The position numbers and the translations under genes are program-made. The notes under the pieces were generated by a model. The model did not search any database. It saw nothing but the letters and a program-made list of their open reading frames with translations, and was not told the origin of the DNA. A stretch of DNA of 64,000 nucleotides from Escherichia coli (lineage in GTDB: Bacteria; Pseudomonadota; Gammaproteobacteria; Enterobacterales; Enterobacteriaceae). Each line of letters opens with the position of its first letter. The first letter of the stretch is position 1. The DNA lies in the NCBI RefSeq assembly GCF_024700885.2, contig NZ_CP117016.1. The stretch is one strand, 5' to 3'. Positions 3,748 to 34,433 of this stretch are shown here, piece after piece.

Positions 3748-4104
3748 TTACATCTGGGCTGAAAACTCACGTTCTAAGACATCAACAATGAGCTGGTTTT
3801 TTGAAATGGAATGTTGTCTGGCGACGATGGTCAGCCGCGAATCAATGTGATGAGGAACACGAAGCGTCAGGCGTTTTTGCTCTTCTTCTTCACGAAAAGG
3901 GGCAATACCGTCCTCTTCACAATCCGCCATCCACTCATCCAGCGCGCTTTCGCCTTCACGATATAATGCCTCAATACTTGTGGCTACAAAGTCACAATAA
4001 CCGTTTACATTGAGGAACTTGCCGCGAAATGCGTTGATATCGGCTTCAAATGTCACTGCGGCTGGTTGACCTTTAATTGTGATAATGTTCGATGCTTTAT
4101 TCAT
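3748..4104 (-). CDS. HicB-family antitoxin with C-terminal ribbon-helix-helix
   Basis: 118 aa; N-terminal HicB-like fold pattern (..FRGKFLNVNGYCDFVATSIEALYREGESALDEWMADCEEDG) and C-terminal RHH-like TLRVPHHIDSRLTIVARQHSISKNQLIVDVLEREF; overlaps upstream toxin gene by 8 nt. Confidence 0.7.
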   Translation of the reverse strand: MNKASNIITIKGQPAAVTFEADINAFRGKFLNVNGYCDFVATSIEALYREGESALDEWMADCEEDGIAPFREEEEQKRLTLRVPHHIDSRLTIVARQHSISKNQLIVDVLEREFSAQM

Positions 4105-4396
4105 AATCTACCCCTACACAGTTAACAAACCACTCCTTAAGACCTGCTACTGCGCCTTTATCCATCACATTCTTTGGATGTGGCTCATGTGTGCTGAATT
4201 TGGTCGTTCCAATCTGAAATTTTCGTCTGGAGCCGTTGTTATTTTTTATTGTTCCACCCACAGCTTTAATGAGTGCAACAACATCATCCCATTTAATTCC
4301 AGATTTTGGCGGCTCCGTCATTACATCGTCGAATGTTTTTCTATGACGAGAGCCTAGCGCGCTGACCTTAATCATACTATCAATCCATGACGTCAT
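4097..4396 (-). CDS. HicA-family mRNA-interferase toxin (long form)
   Basis: 99 aa (or 92 aa from M8 at 4375); pattern IKWDDVVALIKAVGG...NGSRRKF....FSTHEPHPKNVMDKGAVAGLKEWF matches the HicA layout (W-D..L....G / GS+ / H.PHP / kgav..v+.fl). Confidence 0.65.
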   Translation of the reverse strand: MTSWIDSMIKVSALGSRHRKTFDDVMTEPPKSGIKWDDVVALIKAVGGTIKNNNGSRRKFQIGTTKFSTHEPHPKNVMDKGAVAGLKEWFVNCVGVDYE

Positions 4397-4479: not shown

Positions 4480-6573
4480 TCAACTCAACGCCCCCATAAT
4501 CTTCAACTCCAGCTCATCCGGCACTTCGTTATACGACAGCACATGCAGCCCCGGCGCAAACAATCTCGCATAGCGCGCCAGCAAAGGACGCAACTGCGGC
4601 GGCACCAGCAGCACCGGGTCTTTCCCCGCCGCTTTCATCTGCTCCTTCACCTGCGGCATCGTGATCTGAAACTGGTTGAGCATATTCGGGTCAACCGGTA
4701 CGCTGTCGAGCATCACTTTCCCGCCCTGTTGCGCCTGATTCACCACGTTGGTCAGCAGATTTTCCAGCTCATTATTCAGCGTATACACCGTCAGCTCCTG
4801 CTTGCGAACGAGCGGATGGGTAATGCTGCGCCGTAGCGCCAGGCGCACATCAGCTGCCAGCAGAATATGATCTTTGGTCACTGTGCTACTGGCGACCAGC
4901 ACGGTGGCGATGGTGACGATATCGCGCAGGGAAACGCCTTCAGTCAGTAGCGCCCGGTACACTTTCAGCAACTGGCTGTAATTGAGCGCCGCGCTCAAAT
5001 CTTCCGCCAGTCGCGGTGCCATCGACGACAAACGGTTATGCAGCTGAGTAATATCGTCATAGTTAAACAAATCAGGAATATAGCTGCGGACAATCTTGTT
5101 CACATGGGTGGCAATCACGCTGGCGCTGTCGATCACCTGATACCCCATATTCAGCGCCTTCGCTTTCTGCGCAGGCTGAATCCAGGTGACCGGCATCCCG
5201 TACGCCGGGTCGTTCCCCAATACGCCGTCTATCTCGCCGTAGGTTTCGCTGGAGGGCAGGGCCATCAGTTTATCCGCCGGAATATCCGCTTCATCAGCCT
5301 TAATGCCGTTGATGAAAATGGCGTACTGGCTGGGCTTGAGGCGGAAATTTTCCCGAATGCGGATCTCCGGCAGCAGCACGCCGTTGCCGTCGGAAATCAC
5401 CTGCCGCACGCCGCGAATCCGCTGGGTGAGCGGGTTACCTTGGGCTTTATCGACCAGCGCCACCAGCTTGTAGCCGAGGCTTAAGCTGATGGGCTCGATC
5501 AGCGGAATGGTTTCCCAACTGACCTGTTGCTCGCTGGTTTCAGTGATAGTGCGGGTCAGCGTTTCGAGACTTTTCTCTTCTGCCTCCGCCGCCTGCGGGC
5601 GTTTGCTCATCCGCCAGCCGGTAAAGCCAAGCAGGGCGCTGAACAGCAAAAACGGCAGATGCGGCATTCCCGGCACCACCGCCAGTACGAACATGATCCC
5701 GGTGGCGGTGTAGAGCACCGACGGGCTTGCCAGCAGCTGGTGGCGCACGTCATGGGCGATATCGCCGTTGTCGCTGACGCGGGTGACGATAATCGCCGCC
5801 GCGGTGGAAAGCAGCAGGGAAGGGATCTGCGCCACCAGGCCGTCGCCGATGGTCATCAGCACATATTGCTGGAAGGCGGCGTCGGCGCTCAGGTTGTATT
5901 TGAAGATCCCGATACAGACGCCGCCGATCAGGTTGATCGCCAGAATCATCATCCCGGCTATGGCATCCCCACGCACAAACTTCGATGCCCCGTCCATCGC
6001 GCCGTAGAAATCGGCCTCGCTGGCAACATCTTTACGCCGTGTTTGCGCCTGCGCCTGGTTGATCAACCCGGCGTTAAGATCGGCGTCAATCGCCATCTGT
6101 TTGCCGGGCATCGCGTCCAGGGTAAAGCGGGCGGAAACCTCGGAAATACGCTCGGCCCCTTTGGTGACGACGATAAAGTTGATGATCATCAGGATGATAA
6201 ACACCACGAAACCGACGACAAAGTTGCCGCCAATCACCACCTGACCAAATGACTCAATCACCTTACCTGCTGCGCCCGCGCCGAGATGCCCGTGCAGTAG
6301 CACCACGCGCGTAGAAGCAACGTTCAGCGTCAGGCGCATTAAGGTGGTGATCAGCAAAATGGTCGGGAACAGGCTGAATTCCAGCGGCCTTTTCGCCGAC
6401 ACCGCCACCAGCAGCACCATCACCGCCAGCACAATGTTGAAGGTGAACAGAATATCCAGCAGCGCAGGCGGCAGCGGCAAAATAACCATCGCCAGAATAC
6501 ACAGGATCACCAGCGGCACGCCGGGATTACCGCCGCGCAGTAGCGCGAGGAACGATTTAGTTGTTTTCGCCAT
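4480..6573 (-). CDS. lfhA: Flag-2 lateral flagellar export gate protein LfhA (FlhA homologue), full length
   Basis: 697 aa; FlhA/T3SS export-gate N-terminal TM domain and cytoplasmic domain; position next to lfhB. Confidence 0.9.
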   Translation of the reverse strand: MAKTTKSFLALLRGGNPGVPLVILCILAMVILPLPPALLDILFTFNIVLAVMVLLVAVSAKRPLEFSLFPTILLITTLMRLTLNVASTRVVLLHGHLGAGAAGKVIESFGQVVIGGNFVVGFVVFIILMIINFIVVTKGAERISEVSARFTLDAMPGKQMAIDADLNAGLINQAQAQTRRKDVASEADFYGAMDGASKFVRGDAIAGMMILAINLIGGVCIGIFKYNLSADAAFQQYVLMTIGDGLVAQIPSLLLSTAAAIIVTRVSDNGDIAHDVRHQLLASPSVLYTATGIMFVLAVVPGMPHLPFLLFSALLGFTGWRMSKRPQAAEAEEKSLETLTRTITETSEQQVSWETIPLIEPISLSLGYKLVALVDKAQGNPLTQRIRGVRQVISDGNGVLLPEIRIRENFRLKPSQYAIFINGIKADEADIPADKLMALPSSETYGEIDGVLGNDPAYGMPVTWIQPAQKAKALNMGYQVIDSASVIATHVNKIVRSYIPDLFNYDDITQLHNRLSSMAPRLAEDLSAALNYSQLLKVYRALLTEGVSLRDIVTIATVLVASSTVTKDHILLAADVRLALRRSITHPLVRKQELTVYTLNNELENLLTNVVNQAQQGGKVMLDSVPVDPNMLNQFQITMPQVKEQMKAAGKDPVLLVPPQLRPLLARYARLFAPGLHVLSYNEVPDELELKIMGALS

Positions 6574-7696
6574 CCAGTTTAAGCACCTCTTTGGGAATGG
6601 AAATATGTCTGTTCAGGGCCGGGCGCGGCTGTGCGCCGTCGCGCCAGTGTTTCATTTGCAGGACGTAGGTCAGAACGTGGGCGATGGCCCGGTAAAGCTG
6701 AAACGGAATTTGCTGGTTCACCTGGGTGGTGTAGTAAACCGAGCGCGCCAGCCGCGGGAACTCGACCACTTCCACCTGATTCTCAGCAGCGACCTGACGA
6801 ATATAGAGGGCGATTTCATCGGTGCCTTTCGCCACCACAAACGGCGCGGCGGCGCGCGACTGGTCGTACTGCAACGCTACGGCGTAGTGGGTCGGGTTGG
6901 TGATCACCACGTTGGCTTTTGGCACCACTTTGCGGATTTGCCCCATCGCCAGCTGCCGTTGCAGCCGCCGCACGCGTGCCTTCACTTCCGGCTTGCCTTC
7001 CTGATTTTTGTACTCTTCTTTCAGCTCCTGCTTGGTCATCTTCAGTCCTTTGGTGAACAGGGCTTTCGCCAGCGGCACGTCGATTAACGCAAAGAAGATA
7101 AACAGGATGACAAAGTTGCGCATCACGCTGGCGTAGAGCGATAAACCGTCATTCATCGCCAGTTTGAACGGTAGTGCCTGCAGGCCGAGAAAGGCGGCAA
7201 AGTTATTGCGCAGGCTTACCCACAGCATCACCAGCACCACCACCGACTTCACCGTCATCTTTCCCGTTTCCGCCAGATGTTCGCTGGAAAACAGTCGCCC
7301 AATGCCTTTTAACGGGCTGATTTTGCTGAAATCCGGGAGGATTTTTTTCGGCAGAAACAGCCAGCCGCCGGGCACCAGCGAAGAGAGCAGCGCGGCGGCG
7401 GGCATCGGTAGCAAGGTAAGAATAAACTTGCCGAGAATTAACAGGTGATGGCGCAGAAACTGGCCGAGCACCTGCGGGTTATTAATCTCCTGCGCATACT
7501 GATGCACGCTGATAAAACTCTCGCGTACAAAATCGGCGTACCACGGAAAACTGCTGGAGATCACCACAAACGCCGCAAACAGGCTCGCCGCTAGCCCCAT
7601 ATCCTTCGAGCGCGGCAGTTGCCCCTCTTCACGCGCTTTACGCAGCTTTTGCGCCGAGGGTTTCTCTGTTTTTTCTTCGCTGCTGCTATCCGCCAT
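6557..7696 (-). CDS. lfhB: Flag-2 export switch protein LfhB (FlhB homologue)
   Basis: 379 aa; FlhB hallmarks EKTEKPSAQKLRKAREEGQ N-terminus and autocleavage motif NPTHYAVAL. Confidence 0.9.
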   Translation of the reverse strand: MADSSSEEKTEKPSAQKLRKAREEGQLPRSKDMGLAASLFAAFVVISSSFPWYADFVRESFISVHQYAQEINNPQVLGQFLRHHLLILGKFILTLLPMPAAALLSSLVPGGWLFLPKKILPDFSKISPLKGIGRLFSSEHLAETGKMTVKSVVVLVMLWVSLRNNFAAFLGLQALPFKLAMNDGLSLYASVMRNFVILFIFFALIDVPLAKALFTKGLKMTKQELKEEYKNQEGKPEVKARVRRLQRQLAMGQIRKVVPKANVVITNPTHYAVALQYDQSRAAAPFVVAKGTDEIALYIRQVAAENQVEVVEFPRLARSVYYTTQVNQQIPFQLYRAIAHVLTYVLQMKHWRDGAQPRPALNRHISIPKEVLKLDGENN

Positions 7697-8468
7697 AGTG
7701 ACCTTTCAGCGCGTCGAGTTGCTGCAACACAAAATTCGCCAGATGCAGATAGTGATCCGGCAGGTTGTAGAGCAGGGTGGCGAAGCAGACCAGCCCCGCC
7801 AGCATGTTGATGGGAAAGCCGAGCGAAAAGAGGTTCAGCGGCGGCGCGATGCGGTTGAGCAGGCCAAAGCAGCCCTGCACAATCAGCATGATAAAGGTGG
7901 TCGGCAGCGCCAGCAGCGATGCGGACGCCAGCACCCAGCTAAAGGCCAGTGCGATGGTGCGCAGGGGTTGCGGATGCAGCGCGTTGCCAATCGGCCAGTA
8001 GGTGAAGCCCTTATACAAAACACTCACCAGCAACAGATGCCCGTCCATGGCAAAAAACAGCAGGATTGCGTAGACGTTGATTAACTCCGCCAGCACGGTG
8101 GTCGATGCGCCGCTGCTCGGGTCGTTCATCACCGCCATGCTCATCCCCATATTGAACGAGAGAATTTGCCCGGCCAGTTGCAGCGCCAGAAACAGAAACT
8201 GAAACATCAGCCCGAACAACATGCCCCATAATATTTGCTCCACCGTCAGGATCAGGCTGTTGAGCGATAGCAGGTCGTGGGGAATGGGATGGGGGATCAA
8301 CGGCGTGATGATGATTGCCAGCGCCAGCGACAAAATGATCCGCACACGCACGGTCAGGGCGCTGTTATCCAGCACCGGCACATAGCGCAGAAACGCCATA
8401 ATGCGCACGAAGGGAAACCACAGCCCCATCGCCAGATCCATCAGTTGCGTAACGTCGCTTGTACGCAT
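7686..8468 (-). CDS. lfiR: Flag-2 export apparatus protein LfiR (FliR homologue)
   Basis: ORF 7686-8519; start set at M18 (ATG 8466-8468), immediately after the lfiQ stop; polytopic membrane protein. Confidence 0.85.
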   Translation of the reverse strand: MRTSDVTQLMDLAMGLWFPFVRIMAFLRYVPVLDNSALTVRVRIILSLALAIIITPLIPHPIPHDLLSLNSLILTVEQILWGMLFGLMFQFLFLALQLAGQILSFNMGMSMAVMNDPSSGASTTVLAELINVYAILLFFAMDGHLLLVSVLYKGFTYWPIGNALHPQPLRTIALAFSWVLASASLLALPTTFIMLIVQGCFGLLNRIAPPLNLFSLGFPINMLAGLVCFATLLYNLPDHYLHLANFVLQQLDALKGHYGG

Positions 8469-8469
8469 C

Positions 8470-8742
8470 TTAATGCACCAGCAACGCGGCCTGGGTAAAC
8501 AGATGAATACACAGATCATGCAACTGGATAATCATCCATTTGCCGCACACGCCCAGCACCACCAGCGTGACAATCAGCCTCGGCAAAAAACTCAGGGTCT
8601 GTTCGTTAATCTGCGTCACCGCCTGGAACACGCTCACCAGCAGGCCAACCAGCAGGCTCGGCACTACCAGCACGGAAACCAGCAAAATCACCACTTTTAT
8701 GCCGCTCGCGACAATGTCGGCGGCTACGTCTACGGTCAACAT
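8470..8742 (-). CDS. lfiQ: Flag-2 export apparatus protein LfiQ (FliQ homologue)
   Basis: 90 aa, 2-TM FliQ-like with QINEQTLSFLP motif. Confidence 0.88.
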   Translation of the reverse strand: MLTVDVAADIVASGIKVVILLVSVLVVPSLLVGLLVSVFQAVTQINEQTLSFLPRLIVTLVVLGVCGKWMIIQLHDLCIHLFTQAALLVH

Positions 8743-8744
8743 AA

Positions 8745-9497
8745 TCAGCCCAGCCCCAGCCCGCGAATGCTGGTGGTGAGCGTACCGATTGTCAGCGACC
8801 AGCCGTCGATCAGCACAAACAGCATCAGTTTAAAGGGCAGCGAAACAATCAGCGGCGACAGCATCATCATCCCCATCGCCATCAATACGCTGGCGACAAT
8901 CAGGTCGATAACCAGAAACGGGATGTAAATCATAAAGCCAATCTGGAAGGCGGTTTTCAGCTCGCTCAACACATAGGCAGGCACCACGATGGAGAGATCC
9001 TGATCGGCGGCATTGCCCTTCGCGCCGCCGATGGTCATGATTTGCGCCATCGCTTTTTTGTCGGTCTGCGCCAGCATAAAGCGTTTGAGCGGCGTCGCGG
9101 CGGTGCTTAATGCATCGGTCAGGGTAATCTGATCGTTTTCGAACGGCACTACCGCGTGGTCGTAAATATTGAGCCAGATAGGGCGCATCACCAGCATAGT
9201 GAGTGAGAGCGCAATACCAATCAAAATGCGGTTTGGCGGCGTTTGTTGCAGCCCCAGCGCCTGGCGCAGCAGCGACAGCACGATAATAAAGCGCGTAAAG
9301 CAGGTCATCATCAGCACCATCGTCGGCAGCAAACCGACGAGGGTCATCAGAATCAGTACCTGAATTTTGACGCTGTACTCCTGAGTGTTGCCGTGGGTGA
9401 CCACGTTAAGCAGCGCAATATCGCCACCCTGGGCTAACGCCAGCGGCGCAAGCGCCAGCAGCCCAAGGCCCAGCGTCAGTTGAGTGCGGCGTTTCAT
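8745..9497 (-). CDS. lfiP: Flag-2 export apparatus protein LfiP (FliP homologue)
   Basis: 250 aa; signal peptide plus FliP-type TM pattern (FTRFIIVLSLLRQALG, LSELKTAFQIGF). Confidence 0.9.
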   Translation of the reverse strand: MKRRTQLTLGLGLLALAPLALAQGGDIALLNVVTHGNTQEYSVKIQVLILMTLVGLLPTMVLMMTCFTRFIIVLSLLRQALGLQQTPPNRILIGIALSLTMLVMRPIWLNIYDHAVVPFENDQITLTDALSTAATPLKRFMLAQTDKKAMAQIMTIGGAKGNAADQDLSIVVPAYVLSELKTAFQIGFMIYIPFLVIDLIVASVLMAMGMMMLSPLIVSLPFKLMLFVLIDGWSLTIGTLTTSIRGLGLG

Positions 9498-9865
9498 GGT
9501 GCCAGGTCGTTGATATCGCGGGTGTTAAACTCCAGCACGCGCAGGCCGTACTTCTCGTTGACCACCACCACTTCTGCTTTGCCCAACAGGATATTGTTTA
9601 CTTTAATATCCAGCGGCTCCCCGGCGAGCTTATCCAGCTCAATCACCGTGTCGTCGTCGATGTTAAGGAGGTCGGCTAACATGATCTCTACTGATGACAC
9701 TTCCAGCGTTAAGGTCACCGGAATGCGTTTTAGCAGCGTCATCGAGTCGGAAAAACGGTCTTCCAGGCGGGTGACCAGCGTTTCAGCGTCGGCAGATTTC
9801 GCGACAGGCGCAACTTCATCGGTGAGGCCAAAATCCCCGGCTAAAATATCTTCTTGCTTACTCAT
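9494..9865 (-). CDS. lfiN: Flag-2 C-ring/switch protein LfiN (FliN homologue)
   Basis: ORF 9494-9925; start set at MSKQEDIL (ATG 9863-9865), overlapping the lfiM stop; SpoA-like C-terminus IPVTLTLEVSSVEIMLADLLNI...GKAEVVVVNEKYGLRV. Confidence 0.85.
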   Translation of the reverse strand: MSKQEDILAGDFGLTDEVAPVAKSADAETLVTRLEDRFSDSMTLLKRIPVTLTLEVSSVEIMLADLLNIDDDTVIELDKLAGEPLDIKVNNILLGKAEVVVVNEKYGLRVLEFNTRDINDLAP

Positions 9866-10709
9866 GGCTATTCTCATTTTTGCCCGCCAGCTCCGACAAA
9901 AACAGTTTGTCTTTGTCTTCCACAATCAGGGCGCTAAATAATTCAGATTGCCCAATCGCCACCGGGAACGTTTCTCCCAGCGAGATGGGTAAAATATCCC
10001 CGGCTTTTATCTGCGTGAGATCCGCGACATTCAGCGACAGCTCGGCGATTTTGACGTTCAGGGTCAGCGGCAGAGAGCGGATAATCTCTTTAATCAGGGC
10101 CGGTTTATTAACGGATTTCGCCACCTGCTGCGGTTTACTGTGCTCGCTGTGGCGGATCAGATTCAAAATAAAATCGGTGTGGGCGTCGTCGAGCAAAATA
10201 CGAAAACTGCTCTCTTCATCGCCCGCAAGGGTAAAGGTTAATTGATACGCCCAGTGGGTAATCACCGTGCTGCTATCCAGCTTTAATTTCAGCGCAATAC
10301 CGGAGGTTTGCAGATTAAATATCAGCGTGCAGATATCCAGCGCGAGTCGGTTTTTTAAACGAGTTTCGGTTTTGGTCGGCAGCCCGTTATGCGCTTTCGC
10401 CTCTTCAAGAGAGGACTCCAGACCATAAAAATTGCCCAGCAGCATTAACAATAAGGAGCGATCAATATCAAACGCCAGATGCCCGACCTGGGAAACCATC
10501 AGTTCGGCGTTTTTATTAATAATATCCATTTCGCAGCCAATCTTTTTTAAGGTGATATTGCTGCGATGCTTTTTGAGAAAGTAGCTGCCCAGATGCGAAT
10601 CAATCACGTCAAAATTCCCCGTAAACAGGGTCGGCAGGCGATGGTAGGGGCGTCCGAGCCGATTACCTTCTAATTTAAAGATGCCTGGCGTTTTACTGTA
10701 CTTCAGCAT
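9858..10709 (-). CDS. lfiM: Flag-2 switch protein LfiM (FliM homologue)
   Basis: 283 aa, first gene of the leftward lfiMNPQR-lfhBA string. Confidence 0.8.
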   Translation of the reverse strand: MLKYSKTPGIFKLEGNRLGRPYHRLPTLFTGNFDVIDSHLGSYFLKKHRSNITLKKIGCEMDIINKNAELMVSQVGHLAFDIDRSLLLMLLGNFYGLESSLEEAKAHNGLPTKTETRLKNRLALDICTLIFNLQTSGIALKLKLDSSTVITHWAYQLTFTLAGDEESSFRILLDDAHTDFILNLIRHSEHSKPQQVAKSVNKPALIKEIIRSLPLTLNVKIAELSLNVADLTQIKAGDILPISLGETFPVAIGQSELFSALIVEDKDKLFLSELAGKNENSHE

Positions 10710-10888
10710 GGCTTACTTTCTCTGCTGTAATGGTATGGGTGTTTCTGTGCACGCAAATCCGGCTGTGACACAAGGTGAGGTATTAAATAGAGGGGGAGTG
10801 AAAGGGGCAAATTATTAATAGGATGAAAAAATAATTAATCGATTAATTGCTTAATGGGAGTGATTTTCGCCAATCAGTCTGCGGTCTG

Positions 10889-10928
10889 TCCCCTCGCCCC
10901 ATCCGGGGAGAGGGTTAGGGTGAGGGGG
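10889..10928. repeat. Second copy of the cccctc.cccc/ggggagaggg + TTAGGGTGAGGG intergenic hairpin repeat
   Basis: tcccctcgcccc atcc ggggagaggg ttagggtgaggggg; same architecture as 1049-1088. Confidence 0.6.
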
Positions 10929-11081
10929 CATCACAGATGTCCAAATTAACAGTATTAATATCTAACTAATTGTTTACCATCAAATAATATTTTTATTATC
11001 GTTTAATTCGAACTTGTTAATCCCGCCGGTGATACGCTTCAGAACATCCTGTTTTCTGTCGCTACTTATATCGTTCACCCT

Positions 11082-11349
11082 ATGTCTGAACTTATTGCAA
11101 CTGCCGCTTCCAGCATTAACGCTTTTACTCTGGCAAAGCGTGTCGCCGCATTTAACGTGCCGGTGCTCATTCAGGGCGAAACCGGCGCGGGCAAAGAATG
11201 CGTGGCAAAATATATTCACACCGTCGCCTTTGGTGAAAATGATAACGCGCCCTATATCGGCGTGAACTGCGCGGCGATCCCGGAAAACATGCTGGAAGCT
11301 ACATTATTTGGCTACGACAAAGGCGCATTTACCGGCGCAATTGCCAGCG
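11082..11349 (+). pseudogene. lafK: lafK (sigma-54-dependent Flag-2 activator) truncated after ~89 codons by IS1
   Basis: MSELIATAASS...VLIQGETGAGKECVAKYIH...FGYDKGAFTGA: AAA+ Walker A and GAFTGA motifs of sigma-54 activators; reading frame runs straight into the IS1 left end at 11350. Confidence 0.85.
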
Positions 11350-11404
11350 GGTGATGCTGCCAACTTACTGATTTAGTGTATGATGGTGTTTTTGAGGTGC
11401 TCCA

Positions 11405-11680
11405 GTGGCTTCTGTTTCTATCAGCTGTCCCTCCTGTTCAGCTACTGACGGGGTGGTGCGTAACGGCAAAAGCACCGCCGGACATCAGCGCTATCTCTGC
11501 TCTCACTGCCGTAAAACATGGCAACTGCAGTTCACTTACACCGCTTCTCAACCCGGTACGCACCAGAAAATCATTGATATGGCCATGAATGGCGTTGGAT
11601 GCCGGGCAACCGCCCGCATTATGGGCGTTGGCCTCAACACGATTTTCCGCCATTTAAAAAACTCAGGCCGCAGTCGGTAA
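11405..11680 (+). CDS. insA: IS1 InsA (transposition inhibitor / N-terminal part of transposase)
   Basis: 91 aa [40 protein letters not shown]... Confidence 0.95.
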
Positions 11681-12102
11681 CCTCGCGCATACAGCCGGGC
11701 AGTGACGTCATCGTCTGCGCGGAAATGGACGAACAGTGGGGATACGTCGGGGCTAAATCGCGCCAGCGCTGGCTGTTTTACGCGTATGACAGGCTCCGGA
11801 AGACGGTTGTTGCGCACGTATTCGGTGAACGCACTATGGCGACGCTGGGGCGTCTTATGAGCCTGCTGTCACCCTTTGACGTGGTGATATGGATGACGGA
11901 TGGCTGGCCGCTGTATGAATCCCGCCTGAAGGGAAAGCTGCACGTAATCAGCAAGCGATATACGCAGCGAATTGAGCGGCATAACCTGAATCTGAGGCAG
12001 CACCTGGCACGGCTGGGACGGAAGTCGCTGTCGTTCTCAAAATCGGTGGAGCTGCATGACAAAGTCATCGGGCATTATCTGAACATAAAACACTATCAAT
12101 AA
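11599..12102 (+). CDS. insB: IS1 InsB frame (expressed as InsAB' transposase by -1 frameshift)
   Basis: 167-aa ORF in the -1 frame relative to insA; slippery A6C motif at 11656-11662. Confidence 0.9.
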
Positions 12103-12118
12103 GTTGGAGTCATTACCG

Positions 12119-12274
12119 GAATGCCTGACGGAAATGAAATTTGAAGATTTGCGCGGCATGAAAATATCCGCCATCCGCAAACTGATTTCTGATGCGCTAA
12201 AGAAAGATCTTCAGCGTCGCAAAATGAGCGCACCGTATAAGGATTTGCTGGTGAAAAAAGTGGTCTTCCAGTAA
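12119..12274 (+). pseudogene. 3' stub (51 codons) of the gene preceding lafS (lafF position in intact Flag-2 loci)
   Basis: Open frame from the IS1 right junction: ECLTEMKFEDLRGMKISAIRKLISDALKKDLQRRKMSAPYKDLLVKKVVFQ*, with no start codon or upstream part. Confidence 0.55.
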
Positions 12275-12293
12275 TCACCAGGCGGATATAAAC

Positions 12294-13010
12294 ATGCTAC
12301 AGGACGTATTCGAGTCAGAAGAATTTGCTGCCGCGCCGGTATTAACCCCGCAGCAGGAGAGCCACTACTTGCAGGCCTATTTACCGTTGGTGCGTAAAGT
12401 GGTGCGGCAACTTGCCCCGCAGTGTAATTGCATTATTGATCGTCAGGATATGGAACAAATGGCGTTAATGGGGCTGCTTAATGCCATTCGTCGCTACGGG
12501 CTGCCGGACGAAGGTTTTGCGGGCTATGCCGTGCACCGTATTCGCGGCGCGATCCTGGATGAGCTGCGCGCTCTCGACTGGCGACCGCGCCAGCTGCGAC
12601 AGAAATATCATCAGATGAAAGATCTGATACGCGAAACGCGTAAAAAACTGGGGCACGAACCGGAGTGGTCAGAACTGGCCGTGGAAGGGATTTCGCATGA
12701 AGATTATATCGAATATCAGCAACTGGAAGGGGCGGAAACGCTCGCCAGCCTTGACGAACTGCTGAACGGCGAAGGGCCAGGCATTCCACTTGTTGGCAGG
12801 GAACTGGAAGATCAGTTTGTCACCCAGCAAATGCTGCAATACGCGCTTTCACTATTAAGCGAAAAAGAGCAACTGATCCTCTCCATGTATTACCAGCATG
12901 AGATGAATCTCAAAGAGATTGCGCTGGTATTAGGGCTAACCGAGGCCCGAATTTGTCAACTGAATAAACAGATCGCGCAGAAAATTCGTGATTTTGTCTA
13001 TCCGAATTAA
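12294..13010 (+). CDS. lafS: Flag-2 sigma-28-family sigma factor LafS (FliA homologue)
   Basis: 238 aa; sigma-70 family regions 2 and 4 (MALMGLLNAIRRY..., LKEIALVLGLTEARICQLNKQ). Confidence 0.88.
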   Translation: MLQDVFESEEFAAAPVLTPQQESHYLQAYLPLVRKVVRQLAPQCNCIIDRQDMEQMALMGLLNAIRRYGLPDEGFAGYAVHRIRGAILDELRALDWRPRQLRQKYHQMKDLIRETRKKLGHEPEWSELAVEGISHEDYIEYQQLEGAETLASLDELLNGEGPGIPLVGRELEDQFVTQQMLQYALSLLSEKEQLILSMYYQHEMNLKEIALVLGLTEARICQLNKQIAQKIRDFVYPN

Positions 13011-13022: not shown

Positions 13023-13886
13023 ATGCAAAAAATATTAGGTTTACTGGTGGTGCTCGGCTGCGTATTTGGCGGTTATTTTGAAGCGGGCGGGCAACTAGTG
13101 GCTATCTGGCAACCGGCGGAGATGATCATTATTTTGGGTGCCGGTTTCGGGGCGATGATTATTGGTAATCCGAAACATGTGCTGAAAGAGATTGCTCATC
13201 AAATTAAAGGCGTGATCAGTAAAAAACAGCTCGGGCCGGAGTTTCAGCGTCAGCTATTAATGTGCCTGTATGAGTTGCTCGAAATGGTACAAAACGGCGG
13301 CCTGCGCATGTTGGATCAGCATATTGAGCAGCCGGAAGAGAGCACCGTTTTCCAGAAATACCCGCTGGTGTTAACCCAGAAGCGGCTGGTGACCTTTATT
13401 GCCGATAACTTTCGCCTGATGGCGATGGGCAAAATCGACGCCCACGAACTGGAAGGCATTCTCGATCAGGAGCTGGATACCGCCGAAGAGTCGCTGCTCA
13501 CGCCGTCGCGCTCGCTGCAACGTACCGCCGAAGCGATGCCGGGATTTGGTATTTGCGCGGCGGTGCTGGGCATCATCATCACCATGCAGTCGATTGATGG
13601 ATCTATCGCCCTGATTGGCCTGAAAGTGGCGGCGGCTCTGGTGGGGACGTTTTTAGGCGTCTTTATCTGCTACTGCCTGATGGACCCGCTTGCCAACGCC
13701 ATGGAACAACAGGCGCGGGCGGAACATTCTTTGCTGGAATGTGTGCGTACCGTGCTGGTGGCGCAGGCGGGCGGTAAACCGACGCTGCTGGCGGTAGACG
13801 CCGGGCGTAAGCTGCTGCATCTAGCGTCCAAACCGACCTTCGCCAACCTCGACGCGTGGGTGAATGCGATGCTGGAGCAAGAATAA
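13023..13886 (+). CDS. lafT: Flag-2 stator protein LafT (MotA homologue)
   Basis: 287 aa, MotA/ExbB/TolQ-type channel with 4 TM segments. Confidence 0.88.
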   Translation: MQKILGLLVVLGCVFGGYFEAGGQLVAIWQPAEMIIILGAGFGAMIIGNPKHVLKEIAHQIKGVISKKQLGPEFQRQLLMCLYELLEMVQNGGLRMLDQHIEQPEESTVFQKYPLVLTQKRLVTFIADNFRLMAMGKIDAHELEGILDQELDTAEESLLTPSRSLQRTAEAMPGFGICAAVLGIIITMQSIDGSIALIGLKVAAALVGTFLGVFICYCLMDPLANAMEQQARAEHSLLECVRTVLVAQAGGKPTLLAVDAGRKLLHLASKPTFANLDAWVNAMLEQE

Positions 13887-13888: not shown

Positions 13889-14812
13889 ATGAGAAAGACG
13901 GGCAACCGCCGCGAGCGTGGGGCAAAAACCACCATCGTCCGGCGGCAGATCAAAAAGAATCATGCCGGGCATCACGGCGGGGCGTGGAAGGTGGCGTTCG
14001 CCGACTTTACTTTGGCAATGATGGCGCTATTTATGACGCTGTGGATTGTCAACAGCGTCAGTAAATCCGAGCGTGAAAGCATTATCGCCGCGCTGCACGG
14101 GCAGTCGATTTTCAATGGCGGCGGGTTGTCGCCGTTAAATAAAATCAGCCCGTCTCATCCGCCAAAACCTGCCACCGTGGCGGTGCCGGAAGAGACGGAG
14201 AAAAAAGCGCGTGACGTCAATGAGAAAACGGCGCTGCTGAAGAAGAAATCAGCCACTGAGCTTGGCGAGCTGGCGACCAGTATCAACACCATTGCCCGTG
14301 ATGCACATATGGAAGCGAATCTGGAGATGGAGATTGTTCCCCAGGGACTGCGCGTGCTGATTAAAGATGACCAGAACCGCAATATGTTTGAACGCGGCAG
14401 CGCACAGATTATGCCGTTCTTTAAAACTTTGCTGGTGGAGCTCGCGCCAGTGTTCGACTCGCTCGATAACAAAATTATTATTACCGGGCATACCGATGCG
14501 ATGGCCTACAAAAACAATATCTACAACAACTGGAACCTTTCGGGCGATCGCGCGCTTTCGGCTCGTCGGGTGCTGGAAGAGGCCGGAATGCCGGAAGATA
14601 AAGTGATGCAGGTGAGCGCGATGGCGGACCAGATGCTGCTGGACGCGAAAAATCCGCAAAGCGCGGGCAACCGACGCATTGAGATTATGGTGCTGACCAA
14701 AAGTGCGTCCGATACGCTGTATCAATACTTTGGTCAGCATGGGGATAAAGTGGTGCAGCCGCTGGTGCAAAAGCTGGATAAGCAGCAGGTGCATTCGCAG
14801 CGAACGCGCTAG
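13889..14812 (+). CDS. lafU: Flag-2 stator protein LafU (MotB homologue), full length
   Basis: ORF 13856-14812; start at MRKTGNRRERG (13889), 3 nt after the lafT stop; MotB plug/TM (WKVAFADFTLAMMALFMTLW) and OmpA-like C-terminus (GHTDAM...NWNLSGDRALSARR). Confidence 0.88.
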   Translation: MRKTGNRRERGAKTTIVRRQIKKNHAGHHGGAWKVAFADFTLAMMALFMTLWIVNSVSKSERESIIAALHGQSIFNGGGLSPLNKISPSHPPKPATVAVPEETEKKARDVNEKTALLKKKSATELGELATSINTIARDAHMEANLEMEIVPQGLRVLIKDDQNRNMFERGSAQIMPFFKTLLVELAPVFDSLDNKIIITGHTDAMAYKNNIYNNWNLSGDRALSARRVLEEAGMPEDKVMQVSAMADQMLLDAKNPQSAGNRRIEIMVLTKSASDTLYQYFGQHGDKVVQPLVQKLDKQQVHSQRTR

Positions 14813-17390: not shown

Positions 17391-17645
17391 ATGGGCAAAT
17401 CTATTCGTCCCTTATCCGATGCGGTATTTACCATCGCATCTGATGGCCTGTGGATCGAGAGTTTAGCGATCCAACAATTACACACCACGGCAAATTTACC
17501 CAACATGCAGCGCGTAGTAGGGATGCCAGATTTACACCCCGGACGCGGCTACCCGATTGGCGCAGCGTTCTTCTCCGCAGGCCGTTTTTACCCGGCAAGA
17601 CGTCGCGGTAACGGTGCTGGAAACAGAAACGGGCCGCTACTCTGA
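17391..17645 (+). pseudogene. ykfJ: RtcB-like RNA ligase N-terminal fragment (ykfJ-type pseudogene) fused out of frame to prfH
   Basis: [60 protein letters not shown]... is an RtcB N-terminus; homology ends near 17590. Confidence 0.75.
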
Positions 17646-17945
17646 CACGCTGCGTTCGGCGCTGATTTCTCTGGATGGCGATAACGCATGGGCATTAAGC
17701 GAAAGTTGGTGCGGCACTATTCAGTGGATTTGTCCGAGTCCGTATCGGCCTCATCATGGGCGCAAAAACTGGTTTCTGGGCATGCTAACAAGCGGCTGGC
17801 GCGATTGCTGATTGCCTGGAAGCTGGAACAACAGCAACAGGAAAATAGCGCGGCGCTGAAATCGCAGTGGCGAATGTTCCATCATCAAATTGAACGTGGC
17901 AACCCGCGACGGACATTTACAGGGATGGCTTTTATCGAAGGATAA
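17593..17945 (+). pseudogene. prfH: Peptide chain release factor H (prfH) remnant, split over two frames
   Basis: [63 protein letters not shown] in one frame, [54 protein letters not shown] in another; no GGQ-containing segment in any listed frame. Confidence 0.7.
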
Positions 17946-25837: not shown

Positions 25838-25913
25838 GCCGATATAGCTCAGTTGGTAGAGCAGCGCATTCGTAATGCGAAGGTCGTAGGTTCGACTCCT
25901 ATTATCGGCACCA
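25838..25913 (+). tRNA. thrW: tRNA-Thr (anticodon CGT)
   Basis: 76 nt GCCGATATAGCTCAGTTGGTAGAGCAGCGCATTCGTAATGCGAAGGTCGTAGGTTCGACTCCTATTATCGGCACCA: acceptor stem pairs, T-loop GGTTCGA, encoded CCA. Confidence 0.95.
25897..25913 (+). repeat. attL core (3' end of thrW)
   Basis: TCCTATTATCGGCACCA, repeated with one G missing at 38138-38153. Confidence 0.8.
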
Positions 25914-26077
25914 TCACCTAGTTTTCCCAAGTCAACCCACATCAACAAAATCATTTAAAAACATATATATTACGTTGTTTTCATACGTTTGAGGTCAACC
26001 CTTGTCTCTTGAAATCAACACGCGGTTGGGGGCACAATCAGGGGCATGTTCTGTTCGGTCTAGGAAATGTGCCCCCA

Positions 26078-27268
26078 ATGATGCTGAATGCCCGCAAGGT
26101 TGAAGCTGCGAAAGGAAAAGAGAAGAGCTACAAGCTGTTTGATGGAGGTGGCCTATATCTTCAGGTCGAACCTAATGGCTCGCGTTACTGGCGTATGAAA
26201 TACCGTTTTGCTGGTAAAGAGAAACGATTGTCCTTTGGTGTTTATCCAACAGTCACACTTGCTGATGCCAGACAAAAACGAGAAGACGCGAAGAAACTAC
26301 TCGCAGCAGGTGAAGATCCCGGCGAAGTCAAAAAAGCCAAAAAGCAGGCTTTAAATGCAGCGATTGAGACACTTAACCCATTCAGAGAAGTGGCGTTAGA
26401 GTGGCACAAAATGAAATCACCCAAATGGTCTGAGGGCTATGCTTCCGACATCATTGAGGCATTCGAGAAAGACATTTTCCCGCATATTGGGCACAGACCT
26501 ATAGCTGATATTCAGCCCCTTGAACTGCTTGAAGTTCTGAGATTGATAGAAGCTCGAGGCGCTATGGAGAAAGCGAAGAAAGTCCGTCAGCGATGCGGTG
26601 AAGTTTTTCGCTATGCCATCGTAACGGGTAGGGCAATCTACAATCCGGCACCGGATCTTGCCAGTGCGATGCAAGGACATGAAGCAGTCCACTATCCATT
26701 CCTCAAAGCCAACGAACTACCGGAGTTCTTTAATGCCCTTAATTCTTATTCAGGAAGTCCAATTGTATTGTTGGGGGCGCATTTACTTATCCTGACAGGT
26801 CTACGAACTGGAGAACTACGAGCAGGTGAGTGGCGAGAGGTGGATTTTGATAATGCGGTGTGGGAGATCCCAAAAGAACGTATGAAAATGCGTAGGAGCC
26901 ATATTGTCCCGTTGTCAAAACAAGCATTATCCCATCTCAAAAGTTTGAAAGAACTAACTGGGAACTACCCGCTGATGTTCCCTGGACGCAACGATCCTAG
27001 CAAATTTATGAGTGAAGCAAGCATTAATCAGGTGTTTAAACGTATTGGATATGCAGGGCGTGTTACGGGGCATGGTTTCAGGCATACGATGAGTACAATC
27101 CTACATGAGAAAGGATTTAACAGCGCTTGGATTGAAACCCAGCTTGCTCATTCGGACAAAAACTCTATTCGTGGAATTTATAACCATGCCCAATATCTCG
27201 AAGGGAGAAGAGAAATGATGCAATGGTATGCTAATTATTTATCTGAGCTAATTGGTACTCATAAATGA
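26078..27268 (+). CDS. int: Tyrosine recombinase, P4-type integrase
   Basis: ORF 26009-27268 (TTG); likely ATG 26078: MMLNARKVEAAKGKEKSYKLFDGGGLYLQVEPNGSRYWRMKYRFAGKEKRLSFGVYP (P4-int N-terminal arm domain); catalytic HGFRHT...H..R..Y region near the C-terminus. Confidence 0.9.
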   Translation: MMLNARKVEAAKGKEKSYKLFDGGGLYLQVEPNGSRYWRMKYRFAGKEKRLSFGVYPTVTLADARQKREDAKKLLAAGEDPGEVKKAKKQALNAAIETLNPFREVALEWHKMKSPKWSEGYASDIIEAFEKDIFPHIGHRPIADIQPLELLEVLRLIEARGAMEKAKKVRQRCGEVFRYAIVTGRAIYNPAPDLASAMQGHEAVHYPFLKANELPEFFNALNSYSGSPIVLLGAHLLILTGLRTGELRAGEWREVDFDNAVWEIPKERMKMRRSHIVPLSKQALSHLKSLKELTGNYPLMFPGRNDPSKFMSEASINQVFKRIGYAGRVTGHGFRHTMSTILHEKGFNSAWIETQLAHSDKNSIRGIYNHAQYLEGRREMMQWYANYLSELIGTHK

Positions 27269-28089
27269 ATATTTTAAAAATTAATAATACTGATTCTCTG
27301 CTCAGAGATTACTACCAGTTGGATGAAGCTTCAGAAAAAATTGGTTGTAGTGAAAAGGATATACTCTGGTTTGCCAGAGAACGAGATGTAGAGCTATGCA
27401 TGGAATTCCATGATGATGAGTATGATGTTTCATGTGGTTTGAAGATTGATGGTCAAATGGATGAGTTCTTATCTAATCTGAAATATTTACCACGAGATAG
27501 AAATGGCAATATTATGTTGTCAGACTTAAGTTCTATAAGAATCCCTGATGAAGATAATTTAATTGATAAAAATGGTTTTATTCGATGTTTCATATCCGGT
27601 TTATGGGCTGTTGATTATGAATATAAAGATCTGTTAGTTAAGCATGAGGGGCAACCGGATTCCTGGCCTATTCATTTTCTACTGGCGGGTACGCCTAATA
27701 TAAATTGTAAGGTAATTCTTTATGTAAATTATGATGAAAAAGAAAATTATTATCTTTTTGAGGTTTTGTGGATTACAAAGGTACAGATTCAAAAATTCAT
27801 TGATATAGTCTTATGCGAACAAAAGCGGATAAAAAACGCCAATAAATATAAATCACAATCTGAGGCGCAAAAACAAAAACATGCTGTTCCTCGAGCTGAA
27901 ATACTCATGGCTATTATTTCGCTCTATCATCGTGATATGAGGCTAAGAAGAGAGAGTCCAGCAGCGATAGCTGATTATCTTTTTCAACATGCCAGTGAGT
28001 TCTGGCCTAAGACCGGAGAACCGCCTTTGAGCTATGATACTGTTGTTAGTTTGCTACGTAGTTGCATGAAAAACACTAAGTTTAACTAA
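27265..28089 (+). CDS. Hypothetical protein, translationally coupled to int (ATGA overlap), AT-rich
   Basis: 274-aa ORF; no family recognised by eye; possible N-terminal HTH (LDEASEKIGCSEKDILWFARE). Confidence 0.6.
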   Translation: MNILKINNTDSLLRDYYQLDEASEKIGCSEKDILWFARERDVELCMEFHDDEYDVSCGLKIDGQMDEFLSNLKYLPRDRNGNIMLSDLSSIRIPDEDNLIDKNGFIRCFISGLWAVDYEYKDLLVKHEGQPDSWPIHFLLAGTPNINCKVILYVNYDEKENYYLFEVLWITKVQIQKFIDIVLCEQKRIKNANKYKSQSEAQKQKHAVPRAEILMAIISLYHRDMRLRRESPAAIADYLFQHASEFWPKTGEPPLSYDTVVSLLRSCMKNTKFN

Positions 28090-28214
28090 ATATTAACAAT
28101 TATTGTGGCTAATGATTTTGGATTTTTTTCATTAGTCACATTTTTCTCATTTATAACCTATGTTTTAATTTTCCGTGTTGAAGCCAATAGACTTAGATAA
28201 ACGGAGAATGATGA

Positions 28215-28421
28215 ATGTTATCTAAACATGATAATACTACTTTGCAACGACCTTCAATGGATTCTCTGATCGATATGAAGTTTATTACTTCCGATTGTTT
28301 ATTAAGTGATAAATGGATTTATCGATTGATTTCTCTGAATCGCTTTCCAAAACCTATAAAAATAGGTCGGATGTCACGATGGCGCGCTGCTGATTATTAT
28401 AAGTGGCGAGATGGGTTTTAA
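28215..28421 (+). CDS. alpA: AlpA-family transcriptional regulator / excisionase-like protein
   Basis: 68 aa; SDKWIYRLISLNRFPKPIKIGRMSRWRAADYYKW matches the AlpA/Vis HTH pattern (..iyrli..g.FPkPikiG.rs.W...ev..W). Confidence 0.75.
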   Translation: MLSKHDNTTLQRPSMDSLIDMKFITSDCLLSDKWIYRLISLNRFPKPIKIGRMSRWRAADYYKWRDGF

Positions 28422-28537
28422 GAAAACTCAGGTCAACATTTTGAGGGAATGAGAAATAAGGCAAGAGCAATTAATAAAGGGAATAGATTATCACCTACTC
28501 CCTAAGCCTTAATTGATAGTTAGTAATATTTAACTGA

Positions 28538-28711
28538 TTAGCCTTTAGGGTCAATCCCGCGTGATTGGAGTTCTTTGCGTAAAATTCTTTTAATCCAAGT
28601 TGCCAACGCGCTATCTCCATCTTTGCGCATTTCGTTTTCGAGTTGCAACCTAAAATCGTCGGTAAGACGCATTTGGAATGGTGGAGAACGTTTCTCTTGT
28701 GGTGTTGACAT
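28538..28711 (-). CDS. Small ribbon-helix-helix (Arc/MetJ-like) DNA-binding protein, candidate satellite repressor
   Basis: 57-aa ORF below the ORF-track cutoff, translated by hand: MSTPQEKRSPPFQMRLTDDFRLQLENEMRKDGDSALATWIKRILRKELQSRGIDPKG; beta-strand FQMRL plus two helices; its start codon lies inside the operator repeat. Confidence 0.6.
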   Translation of the reverse strand: MSTPQEKRSPPFQMRLTDDFRLQLENEMRKDGDSALATWIKRILRKELQSRGIDPKG

Positions 28712-28751
28712 GGTAATTACCCTAGAATATGATGACTACATGGTAATTACC
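28705..28751 (+). promoter_or_regulatory. Early rightward promoter (TTGACA-17-TATGAT) bracketed by two ACATGGTAATTACC operator repeats
   Basis: TTGACA 28705-28710, TATGAT 28728-28733; 14-bp direct repeats at 28708-28721 and 28738-28751, each with the perfect palindrome GGTAATTACC. Confidence 0.65.
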
Positions 28752-28842
28752 ATTGTAAGTATAGTTCGCTTGTAAAAGCAATGCCCGATTGTGCGGGAAC
28801 ACAAATCGGGCATTTAACCAACCGTTATAAGAGGTAACGAAG

Positions 28843-29019
28843 ATGGCTAAACAGAAGTGTACTTGGTTATTTGCGGCGATCAACCGCAGTCAACGCAATG
28901 CCCGTCCTGTGATGTTAAGGATCACCGCAGATAACGAGCGGTCAGCGCGGCGCAGACTTGCCCCGGACTATGTACTGAGCTTTGCCGGGCGCATTCCCTG
29001 CGGAGGTGAACATGCGTAA
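28843..29019 (+). CDS. Icd-like host cell-division inhibitor family small protein
   Basis: 58-aa ORF translated by hand: MAKQKCTWLFAAINRSQRNARPVMLRITADNERSARRRLAPDYVLSFAGRIPCGGEHA; resembles remembered Icd-like proteins of P4-type elements (..ARP..L.v.A..E..ARR.La....LSFAaRlPv). Confidence 0.6.
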   Translation: MAKQKCTWLFAAINRSQRNARPVMLRITADNERSARRRLAPDYVLSFAGRIPCGGEHA

Positions 29020-29371
29020 TTATCCGCACCCCGGCGAACGCTGGCAGCATGAACGTGGCTGGACGGTCACGATTATCCGATTAATAGAAGCATCGCCCTC
29101 TGTGGCACTGGTTAATCCTGAATTCAGCTGTGAAGTGCTGATACGTCATGACAGCGACAACCAGCTTTCTTCCTGCCCTCTGGCATGGTTTGAACAGCGG
29201 TATACGCGCCTGTTTGATGTACCGCTCTTTAAGCCTGCACCAGCTCCTGCAGGCGGTAGTGGTTCCGGCCCGCTGACACTGCATCCGTCTGTGCTATTTA
29301 TCCGCTGGCGGGAGCGTAGCATATGGCGTTCTGCTGAGCCTGACGACGGTCACTATTCAAAGTTTCTCTGA
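29012..29371 (+). CDS. Hypothetical protein (satellite early operon)
   Basis: ORF 28982-29371; ATG 29012 overlaps the stop of the preceding gene (ATGCGTAA). Confidence 0.55.
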   Translation: MRNYPHPGERWQHERGWTVTIIRLIEASPSVALVNPEFSCEVLIRHDSDNQLSSCPLAWFEQRYTRLFDVPLFKPAPAPAGGSGSGPLTLHPSVLFIRWRERSIWRSAEPDDGHYSKFL

Positions 29372-29402
29372 CAAAATACCGCTGAAAACGGAGTAATCCA
29401 CG

Positions 29403-29687
29403 ATGAATATTTCAAACGGGCACAACGGTGCTCAGGGCCACACTTTGCCTGAAAAACACAATACCGGTGCTTTTGCCTATGGGTTGTCAGAGGACAGTTT
29501 CGGAAAGCTGACCCGCGCAAGAAATGCCTGCGACATGCTCCAGCTTCTCTTTTCTGAATACCCGTCTCAGGCCGGAGCACTGGACGCTGGCTGTGCGCAT
29601 GGTGTCGCCGCGCTGATGGAGTACCTGCTGGCAGATTTGACGGATATTGCACACAGCTGCGCACTGATTGAAGGAGGTGCCAGATGA
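29403..29687 (+). CDS. Hypothetical protein (satellite early operon)
   Basis: 94-aa ORF, same strand and GC style as neighbours; ATGA overlap with the next ORF. Confidence 0.55.
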   Translation: MNISNGHNGAQGHTLPEKHNTGAFAYGLSEDSFGKLTRARNACDMLQLLFSEYPSQAGALDAGCAHGVAALMEYLLADLTDIAHSCALIEGGAR

Positions 29688-30067
29688 ACCAGCCGCAGGT
29701 TTCCATTTTCCCGGCAGAAATGACCACCGCGCTTTACCGGCGGGCTATTGCTTCAGCATGGCGGCAGAAAATGCTGAACGAAACTGGCAGTGATCAGTAT
29801 GGTCCGCACAGCCTGACGGTGGAGCGTATTGAAATGGCCATTGCGCTGCATATCGAGTGCGTACTGATTAACGAGTACGGCGAAGTGCAGGGCGCCGCTG
29901 CCGCGCTGGCACTGCTGACTGACATGCTGGAGCCGTCACTGCTGACCGCGCCGCCGGTACTGACCGCGCGCGGCTGTGAAGTGATGGCGGAGATGTACCG
30001 CACGCTTCCGGCGGCCTTTGATGACTTCTGCAGTACCGGTGTGACGTTGTATGAGGGGGAAGTATGA
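29684..30067 (+). CDS. Hypothetical protein (satellite early operon)
   Basis: 127-aa ORF, ATGA-coupled on both sides. Confidence 0.55.
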   Translation: MNQPQVSIFPAEMTTALYRRAIASAWRQKMLNETGSDQYGPHSLTVERIEMAIALHIECVLINEYGEVQGAAAALALLTDMLEPSLLTAPPVLTARGCEVMAEMYRTLPAAFDDFCSTGVTLYEGEV

Positions 30068-32736: not shown

Positions 32737-32770
32737 GGCTTTGCGTGAGTCTTATTTATTAAGGGTAACA

Positions 32771-32958
32771 GGTGAAACAGGTGGAACAACCGTATTTTAC
32801 AGGGCTGAACCTGTTCCACCTTCTGAAATAGTGAGGTGGAACAGATGTAACGCCAGCCAATCCGCTGTTCCACCTTGTTACCCGCGATGTTCCACCGGTG
32901 CAGTGTATATAAATGCCTTATAAAACAAAGCCGTAACACATGTTTCACCTGTTCCACC
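32771..32958. repeat. Origin-type iteron cluster: 8 copies of GGTGGAACA/TGTTCCACC around an AT-rich core
   Basis: Forward copies at 32771 (variant GGTGAAACA), 32780, 32835; reverse copies at 32812, 32866, 32888, 32941 (variant TGTTTCACC), 32950; AT-rich tatataaatgccttataaaacaaag at about 32905-32929. Confidence 0.75.
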
Positions 32959-33046
32959 GCATCAGGGACATAAAGCAGACTGAAACAGAGGGCATTTTTA
33001 TCTGGCTGGCTTTCATAGCCACGTCTGAATAACCGCAAGCGCCCGT

Positions 33047-34428: not shown

Positions 34429-34433
34429 TATTA

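Follow-up and report, generated by a model that had tools for sequence, protein, structure and literature searches.

How the Flag-2 locus of an Escherichia coli strain came to be reduced to two outer arms joined by a single insertion sequence, by which route its centre was removed and what the remaining genes might still do were evaluated in a window of 64,000 nucleotides, meaning the whole stretch of DNA analysed. In a search of 5,426 complete genomes, the chromosome of E. coli MLI114 matched the window at 100%, and every other genome covered at most 65% of the queried region. The strain is an ESBL isolate recovered from a stool sample of a soldier on deployment in Mali, and its sister isolate MLI121 differs from it at 14 cgMLST alleles (PMC10198576). 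The locus, situated between yafL/hicAB and dinB, is recognizable as Flag-2 by this position and by its arms, lfhAB-lfiRQPNM-lafK on one side and lafF-lafS-lafT-lafU on the other, in an architecture as published (PMC6993521). Its features in the window are as follows.

4480-6573, minus strand: lfhA, the Flag-2 FlhA export-gate protein, intact (NCBIfam FlhA, E = 2.7e-231; WP_001140834.1, as in strain 1190)
6557-10709, minus strand: lfhB-lfiR-lfiQ-lfiP-lfiN-lfiM (FlhB, FliR, FliQ, FliP, FliN-like, FliM-like), intact (RefSeq annotation; six accessions as in strain 1190)
11082-11349, plus strand: lafK', sigma-54 activator gene, 89 codons and 1 nt (sequence reading; Pfam; RefSeq pseudogene missing C-terminus)
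11350-12117, plus strand: IS1 (IS1B-like) with inverted repeats, transpos_IS1 matches and a RefSeq intact transposase, insA and insB' both on the plus strand, no target-site duplication
12118-12274, plus strand: lafF', FliL-family gene, the 3' 1 nt, 51 codons and stop (identity to LafF; RefSeq pseudogene missing N-terminus)
12294-13010, plus strand: lafS, Flag-2 sigma-28 of the FliA/WhiG family, intact (NCBIfam PRK12427, E = 3.1e-133; WP_000938719.1, as in strain 1190)
13023-13886, plus strand: lafT, MotA-like stator, intact (NCBIfam MotA1, E = 2.4e-112; accession as in strain 1190)
13889-14812, plus strand: lafU, MotB-like stator, intact (NCBIfam LafU, E = 1.4e-174; accession as in strain 1190)

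Two minor elements lie within or at the edge of the left arm. The left edge of Flag-2, between yafL and lfhA, is occupied by a hicA/hicB toxin-antitoxin pair (3748-4375) that is also found in strain 1190, and the divergent spacer between lfiM and lafK holds a GC-rich imperfect palindromic repeat, ctgtcccctcgccccatccggggagagggttagggtgaggggg (about 10876-10931), that resembles a dispersed intergenic repeat of E. coli.

The inserted element was read directly from the sequence as a complete IS1 of 768 bp, placed between the 5' part of lafK and the 3' part of lafF. Its terminal inverted repeats are GGTGATGCTGCCAACTTACTGAT on the left and GGTAATGACTCCAACTTATTGAT on the other strand, the right end reading ...GTTGGAGTCATTACC, and both ends are complete to the last base. 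Ends of the GGTGATGCTGCCAACTTACTGAT type (imperfect, about 23 bp) matched twice in the 64-kb window, with 0 and 1 mismatches and 0 matches expected by chance, and the consensus found no other match, so that the window holds one IS1. The reading frames insA (11405-11680) and insB' (11599-12102) both match the NCBIfam profile transpos_IS1, of which InsA covers positions 1-81 and InsB' positions 76-199, and the A6C frameshift motif ttaaaaaactc is located at about 11653-11663. RefSeq annotates the transposase as intact with a programmed frameshift. The length, the inverted repeats and the insA/insB' transposase made by -1 frameshifting are thus all those of the IS1 family. The 9-mers that border the element differ, ttgccagcg on the left versus ggaatgcct on the right, and a 9-bp target-site duplication was looked for in the flanks in the window sequence and was absent. 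This speaks against a simple insertion, as the initial annotation had concluded from the same 9-mers, and not against the identity of the element as IS1; an element that had participated in a deletion would be expected to have no duplication.

In order to find an intact Flag-2 reference, the two non-IS1 flanks were searched separately. The Flag-2 parts that flank IS1 are present in roughly 1,280-1,300 complete genomes (24%). In strain 1190 (NZ_CP023386.1) both flanks were matched at 100% and lie about 32 kb apart, and its Flag-2 locus record (L002) was used as the intact reference. The layout of strain 1190 begins with lfhAB-lfiRQPNM, a 328-aa LafK, FliE-J, glycosylation cargo, FlgN and FlgM, continues through a type II restriction-modification pair, FlgA-L, LafW, a RelE/ParE toxin-antitoxin pair, LafZ and LafA, and ends with FliD/S/T-like/K, a 155-aa LafF of the FliL family, sigma-28, MotA and LafU. 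It agrees with the published three-cluster architecture of Flag-2 (PMC6993521).

Script comparison of the window with strain 1190 gave a missing interval of exactly 31,796 bp (L002 7082-38877), and the compared flanks of 9,124 bp (left) and 7,081 bp (right) were without a single mismatch. The breakpoints in strain 1190 read ...gcaattgccagcg/tgccagg... in lafK and ...tattgcagt/ggaatgcctgacgg... in lafF, a slash marking the breakpoint, and neither joint is ambiguous; useful microhomology between these two reference breakpoints was looked for and was absent. The corresponding joints in the window (30-mers) are GCAATTGCCAGCG/GGTGATGCTGCCAAC and GGAGTCATTACC/GGAATGCCTGACGG. We consider it practically certain that this is a real IS1-associated deletion that inactivates Flag-2 in MLI114, and the mismatch-free flanks show that the deletion is recent.

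The deletion spans the 3' half of Cluster 1, all of Cluster 2 and most of Cluster 3 and spares both outer arms. It removed 34 whole annotated genes together with 239 codons at the 3' end of lafK and 104 at the 5' end of lafF. Lost are lfiE-J, lfgN-L and lafW/Z/A-E, flagellin LafA included, and cargo; the initial annotation had named lfiE-J, lfgN-L and lafW/Z/A-F as what intact loci carry between lafK and lafS, and the interval in strain 1190 holds these genes, with part of lafF remaining in the window. In terms of function, nothing remains of the rod, ring, hook, junction, cap and filament genes, of the export ATPase complex or of FlgM/FlgN, and because of these losses MLI114 cannot assemble a lateral flagellum. 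The complete Flag-2 core, which amounts to 39 conserved genes including lfiE-J, lfgA-N and lafA-E, is therefore not present, with 34 genes absent and 2 truncated, and the locus is a remnant. As cargo, the block took with it the type II restriction-modification pair from between flgA and flgM, a RelE/ParE toxin paired with an HTH antitoxin, and a cluster of glycosyltransferase and cytidylyltransferase genes (L002 24805-27522, 13010-13660 and 28541-32668, respectively). Two "addiction" modules were thus lost together with the flagellar genes, meaning that such cargo does not prevent deletion.

At the left joint, lafK starts with ATG at 11082 and runs through 89 native codons to 11348, and of codon 90 the first base alone, 11349, is left. 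The chimeric open reading frame then continues with Gly and a TGA (11352-11354) inside IS1, resulting in a product of 90 aa. The fragment is identical to residues 1-89 of LafK in strain 1190 and keeps Walker A (GETGAGKE) and GAFTGA. It matches only positions 3-83 of the 168 in the Pfam profile Sigma54_activat. Full-length LafK in strain 1190, at 328 aa, carries Sigma54_activat at 6-172, AAA_lid_14 at 178-246 and HTH_8 at 284-317. Compared with a complete activator, in which an AAA+ core with Walker A, GAFTGA, Walker B and arginine fingers is followed by a lid and a C-terminal HTH, LafK' is without Walker B (LLLDEIG, about residues 102-108), the remaining AAA+ core, the lid and the DNA-binding HTH, and on account of these missing parts it cannot act as an activator. 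At the right joint, the stub at 12119-12274 consists of 51 codons and a stop and is identical to residues 105-155 of the 155-aa LafF of strain 1190. The initial annotation had described lafK as cut after about 89 codons by a complete 768-bp IS1, and the other flank as the last 51 codons of a different gene followed by intact lafS-lafT-lafU. The sequence reading and the profile matches bear out the first of these statements, and the identity of the stub to LafF together with the NCBIfam matches of the three following genes bears out the second. It had also called lafK the inactivated master activator. Truncation and loss of domains stand, while the term "master activator" is a transfer from Vibrio parahaemolyticus and does not strictly hold in Aeromonas hydrophila (PMC4481668).

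One property of the intact protein was noted in passing. Full-length E. coli LafK (strain 1190, L002 38159-39145) is made up of an AAA+ core, a lid and a Fis-type HTH and has no N-terminal receiver or sensory domain; if active, it would be controlled by its own abundance or by a partner and not by phosphorylation.

IS1 is a classic adjacent-deletion element, and IS1-promoted adjacent deletions were reportedly described by Reif and Saedler in 1975. A route of this kind, starting from a single IS1, is favoured here with somewhat better than even probability over recombination between two copies. One IS1 copy would insert in lafK or lafF and make a 9-bp duplication, after which its transposase would perform intramolecular (replicative) transposition to another site of that chromosome, at a distance of about 32 kb. 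IS1 and the original outer flank would be kept, the other end would be joined to the new target, and the DNA in between would leave as a non-replicating circle. The product would be one IS1 with two unrelated 9-mers, which is what is observed. The locus carries the signature of an adjacent deletion, namely a single IS at the joint, no target-site duplication and a block that is absent from the genome. MLI114 has about 7 IS1 places and a chromosome of 5.27 Mb, and the route is favoured because it needs one prior insertion and not two same-orientation insertions within 32 kb in a genome with so few IS1 places, and because the closest relatives are without IS1 in the locus: none was found in the Flag-2 locus of seven 100%-identical relatives. 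Classical IS1 adjacent deletions, such as those in the gal region of E. coli K-12, were laboratory-selected and arose from a known single IS1. They resemble the present case in that IS1 is kept with its original flank on one side and a distant target joined to it on the other, the DNA in between is lost and no 9-bp duplication is seen. They differ in that the parental single insertion is known only in the classical cases, the route in MLI114 being inferred.

The main competing route begins with two independent same-orientation IS1 insertions, which would have duplicated ttgccagcg in lafK and ggaatgcct in lafF, and continues with RecA-dependent homologous recombination that leaves one hybrid IS1. 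It is a possible explanation, held with distinctly less confidence than the adjacent deletion. It predicts the structure observed, one IS1 with the left flank from one copy and the right flank from the other; IS-IS recombination often explains absent target-site duplications (PMC11708052); and IS1 strikes Flag-2 repeatedly elsewhere, in three independent lfiM events that are detailed below. It requires, however, that a 32-kb target was hit twice beforehand although the genome has only about 7 IS1 places, the locus of the seven closest relatives is free of IS1, and neither simple insertion was found in the complete genomes, a protein collection or the JGI metagenomes. Specifically, IS1 at the lafK or lafF site without the deletion was absent from the 5,426 complete genomes. 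The LafF::IS1 chimeric proteins predicted for such an insertion, modelled for 8-, 9- and 10-bp duplications, were absent from a collection of 15 billion proteins, and the two diagnostic DNA joints predicted for simple insertions, GGAGTCATTACC/TTGCCAGCGTGCCAGG and GCAGTGGAATGCCT/GGTGATGCTGCC, were absent from the JGI metagenomes. The lack of intermediates is weak evidence, as the lineage is sparsely sampled. In fact, the product of an adjacent deletion and that of recombination between two direct copies are the same base for base, so that sequence cannot discriminate between them. The initial annotation had left the route open between these two for good reason, and a missing target-site duplication is generally put down to one or the other (PMC11708052).

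A third route is a one-step event in which the 31.8-kb deletion was made by another break-and-repair process and IS1 was captured into the break without target-site duplication, as has been proposed for IS5 in E. coli C (PMC11708052). It would account for the missing duplication and for the failure to find intermediates in the protein collection and the JGI metagenomes. As a mechanism it is itself without proof, however, and no report of it exists for IS1, and in the long-term evolution experiment all 14 of 14 IS-plus-deletion events were explicable as multistep adjacent deletions (PMC11708052). The IS1 ends being complete to the last base, as expected of joints made by transposase, and the lack of useful microhomology between the reference breakpoints also count against capture, which we regard as unlikely.

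IS copies are classic sites of misassembly and the configuration occurs in only one complete genome, which could suggest that the block is still in MLI114 and was hidden by collapse across IS1 copies or moved by an IS1-IS1 inversion or translocation. This was addressed using as queries the 800 bp of deleted DNA that adjoin each breakpoint in strain 1190. The deleted DNA was matched at 100% in 7 genomes, those of strains 1190, E700025, AST240 and AST20 and of three O166:H15 strains, and by coordinates 6 of these 7 carry the same 31,796-bp interval. All matches at 99% identity or more were listed and none was in MLI114, meaning that the DNA adjoining both breakpoints is absent from every replicon at that threshold. 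The block was accordingly lost and not relocated, and relocation or inversion was rejected. Only one IS1 is present in the 64-kb window, and identical joints occur in independent metagenome assemblies from other samples. An artefact or relocation is thereby rendered extremely improbable.

The survey of related genomes for the same IS1 junction, proposed at the outset, showed both joints to be unique to MLI114 among the 5,426 complete genomes and to recur in metagenome contigs. For the left joint, the 90-aa chimeric LafK' was called on 5 further contigs (ENA, Logan assemblies); one of these metagenome records (L006) follows the window for 6,322 bp with 0 mismatches, its end lying 54 nt inside IS1. 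For the right joint, a 56-aa open reading frame that crosses it was found with 0 mismatches on an independent metagenome contig (L007). Because each joint recurs in independent contigs, the MLI114 deletion allele belongs to a small lineage in circulation and is not a product of faulty assembly. Roughly 20 contigs with a 51-aa "partial FliL" at their end, starting 2 nt or less from the breakpoint, were not counted as the right joint. Most of them start with T or TT and are diverged, and hence belong mostly to other lineages. A G/T SNP at window position 12118, the first retained lafF base, sets the 1190/MLI114 lineage apart from most other E. coli with Flag-2; it breaks de Bruijn-graph contigs and so mimics an IS junction at these contig ends, which is not due to IS1.

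That lafK might be naturally short here, or the stub not Flag-2 DNA, either of which the initial annotation had named as refuting its reading, can be practically dismissed, as the 328-aa LafK and the 155-aa LafF of strain 1190 are identical to the two fragments over the shared residues and full-length genes occur in about 1,280-1,300 genomes.

The deletion was compared to known erosion of Flag-2. De Maayer et al. 2020 reported 25 transposase genes, including IS1, inside enterobacterial flag-2 loci, named transposition a major driver of flag-2 en bloc deletions and found 22% of flag-2 loci to be without at least one core gene (PMC6993521). The MLI114 deletion concerns the same locus and the same phenomenon. 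A description of this allele, reaching from lafK codon 90 to lafF codon 104 over 31,796 bp, was not found in the literature, and it is a new, precisely mapped instance of an already described IS-driven loss of Flag-2. The much commoner scar of K-12, the lfhA'-lafU' deletion (Ren et al. 2005, summarised in PMC6993521), cuts inside lfhA and lafU and has been attributed to direct-repeat recombination with no IS (PMC6993521). It lies at the same chromosomal site, between yafL/hicAB and dinB, and leaves Flag-2 likewise non-functional. In MLI114, by contrast, neither lfhA (697 aa) nor lafU (307 aa) is shortened, 10 other genes have survived and IS1 marks the joint, so that the K-12 arrangement, with breakpoints inside these two genes and nothing between them, does not apply; the initial annotation was correct in separating the two.

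IS1 was also found in neighbouring lfiM in three independent events, in strains S1-THA-01-A, D97-1 and CP61_Sichuan (L004 3057-3754, L005 3057-3754 and L003 3062-3759, respectively). Those in S1-THA-01-A and D97-1 are simple insertions at different sites without deletion. In CP61_Sichuan IS1 joins the dinJ-yafQ side to a fragment of lfiM, and the whole lfhA-lfiM arm is lost. These events involve the same element and the same locus, about 0.4-1 kb from the MLI114 site, and differ from MLI114 in site, lineage and gene. Four further apparent IS1 matches in lafK from the complete-genome search turned out to be in lfiM. Erosion of Flag-2 by IS1 is consequently recurrent but rare, affecting a handful of about 1,300 loci. 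The MLI114 deletion is ordinary IS-driven gene loss and opens no new biological question. To the known stepwise erosion of Flag-2 in E. coli it contributes an intermediate state with precise mapping, and it allows two RefSeq pseudogenes and an IS1 to be explained as one 31.8-kb event, which is mainly of use for annotation and epidemiology. The two unique joint sequences could serve as a clonal marker of the MLI114 lineage.

The fate of the surviving arms was considered last. The export-gate genes and the stator and sigma genes were said to be intact without hook, rod or filament genes, and this is upheld by accessions that are the same as in strain 1190 and by the missing block, which holds the rest. 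The shared accessions show only how recent the event is and are not evidence of selection, since zero substitutions in 16 kb of flanks make the intactness of the orphan genes uninformative in this respect. In Vibrio parahaemolyticus LafK drives the class II genes, the lateral sigma-28 gene included (summarised in PMC4481668). Because of this role, and because the deletion also took lafB and the other DNA upstream of lafF, transcriptional silence is probable for the orphan export-gate operon and for lafSTU, which are left with neither LafK nor the promoter that precedes lafB. A scan of 10600-12400 for sigma-70 promoters and terminators returned only IS1's own promoter, in the left inverted repeat, and chance-level sites, with no evidence of an outward promoter driving lafS. 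A scan with the sigma-54 consensus gave 33 matches at 2 mismatches or less compared to 41.5 expected, none of them in the spacer between lfiM and lafK, and says nothing either way on LafK dependence. Silence is not a secure reading, because LafK of Aeromonas hydrophila is not strictly a master regulator (PMC4481668), an E. coli experiment on LafK as master activator was not found in the literature, the sigma-54 scan is at chance, and insAB' is co-oriented with lafSTU. On account of this co-orientation, weak read-through from IS1 into lafSTU is conceivable.

It is very unlikely that the surviving export gate (lfhAB-lfiRQPNM), lafS and lafTU were kept for a usefulness that persists without the lateral flagellum, with the endpoints shaped by selection and not by chance. 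If the orphan modules were functional, LafS could cross-activate FliA-dependent promoters of the primary flagellum, LafT/LafU could be alternative stators on the primary motor, and IS1 read-through could drive lafSTU.

Two further features were observed in the window to the right of Flag-2. At 17391-17945, the rtcB-family gene and prfH have each been reduced to a pseudogene fragment by truncation or frameshift, and they are in the same state in strain 1190. A P4-like satellite (25838-37894) lies beside tRNA-Thr (25838-25913), with an integrase at 26078-27268 and psu, ogr/delta and primase-like genes, and carries a retron St85 defence module made up of an effector (35530-36498) and a reverse transcriptase (36485-37417), together with a RipA-family membrane protein (37412-37894).
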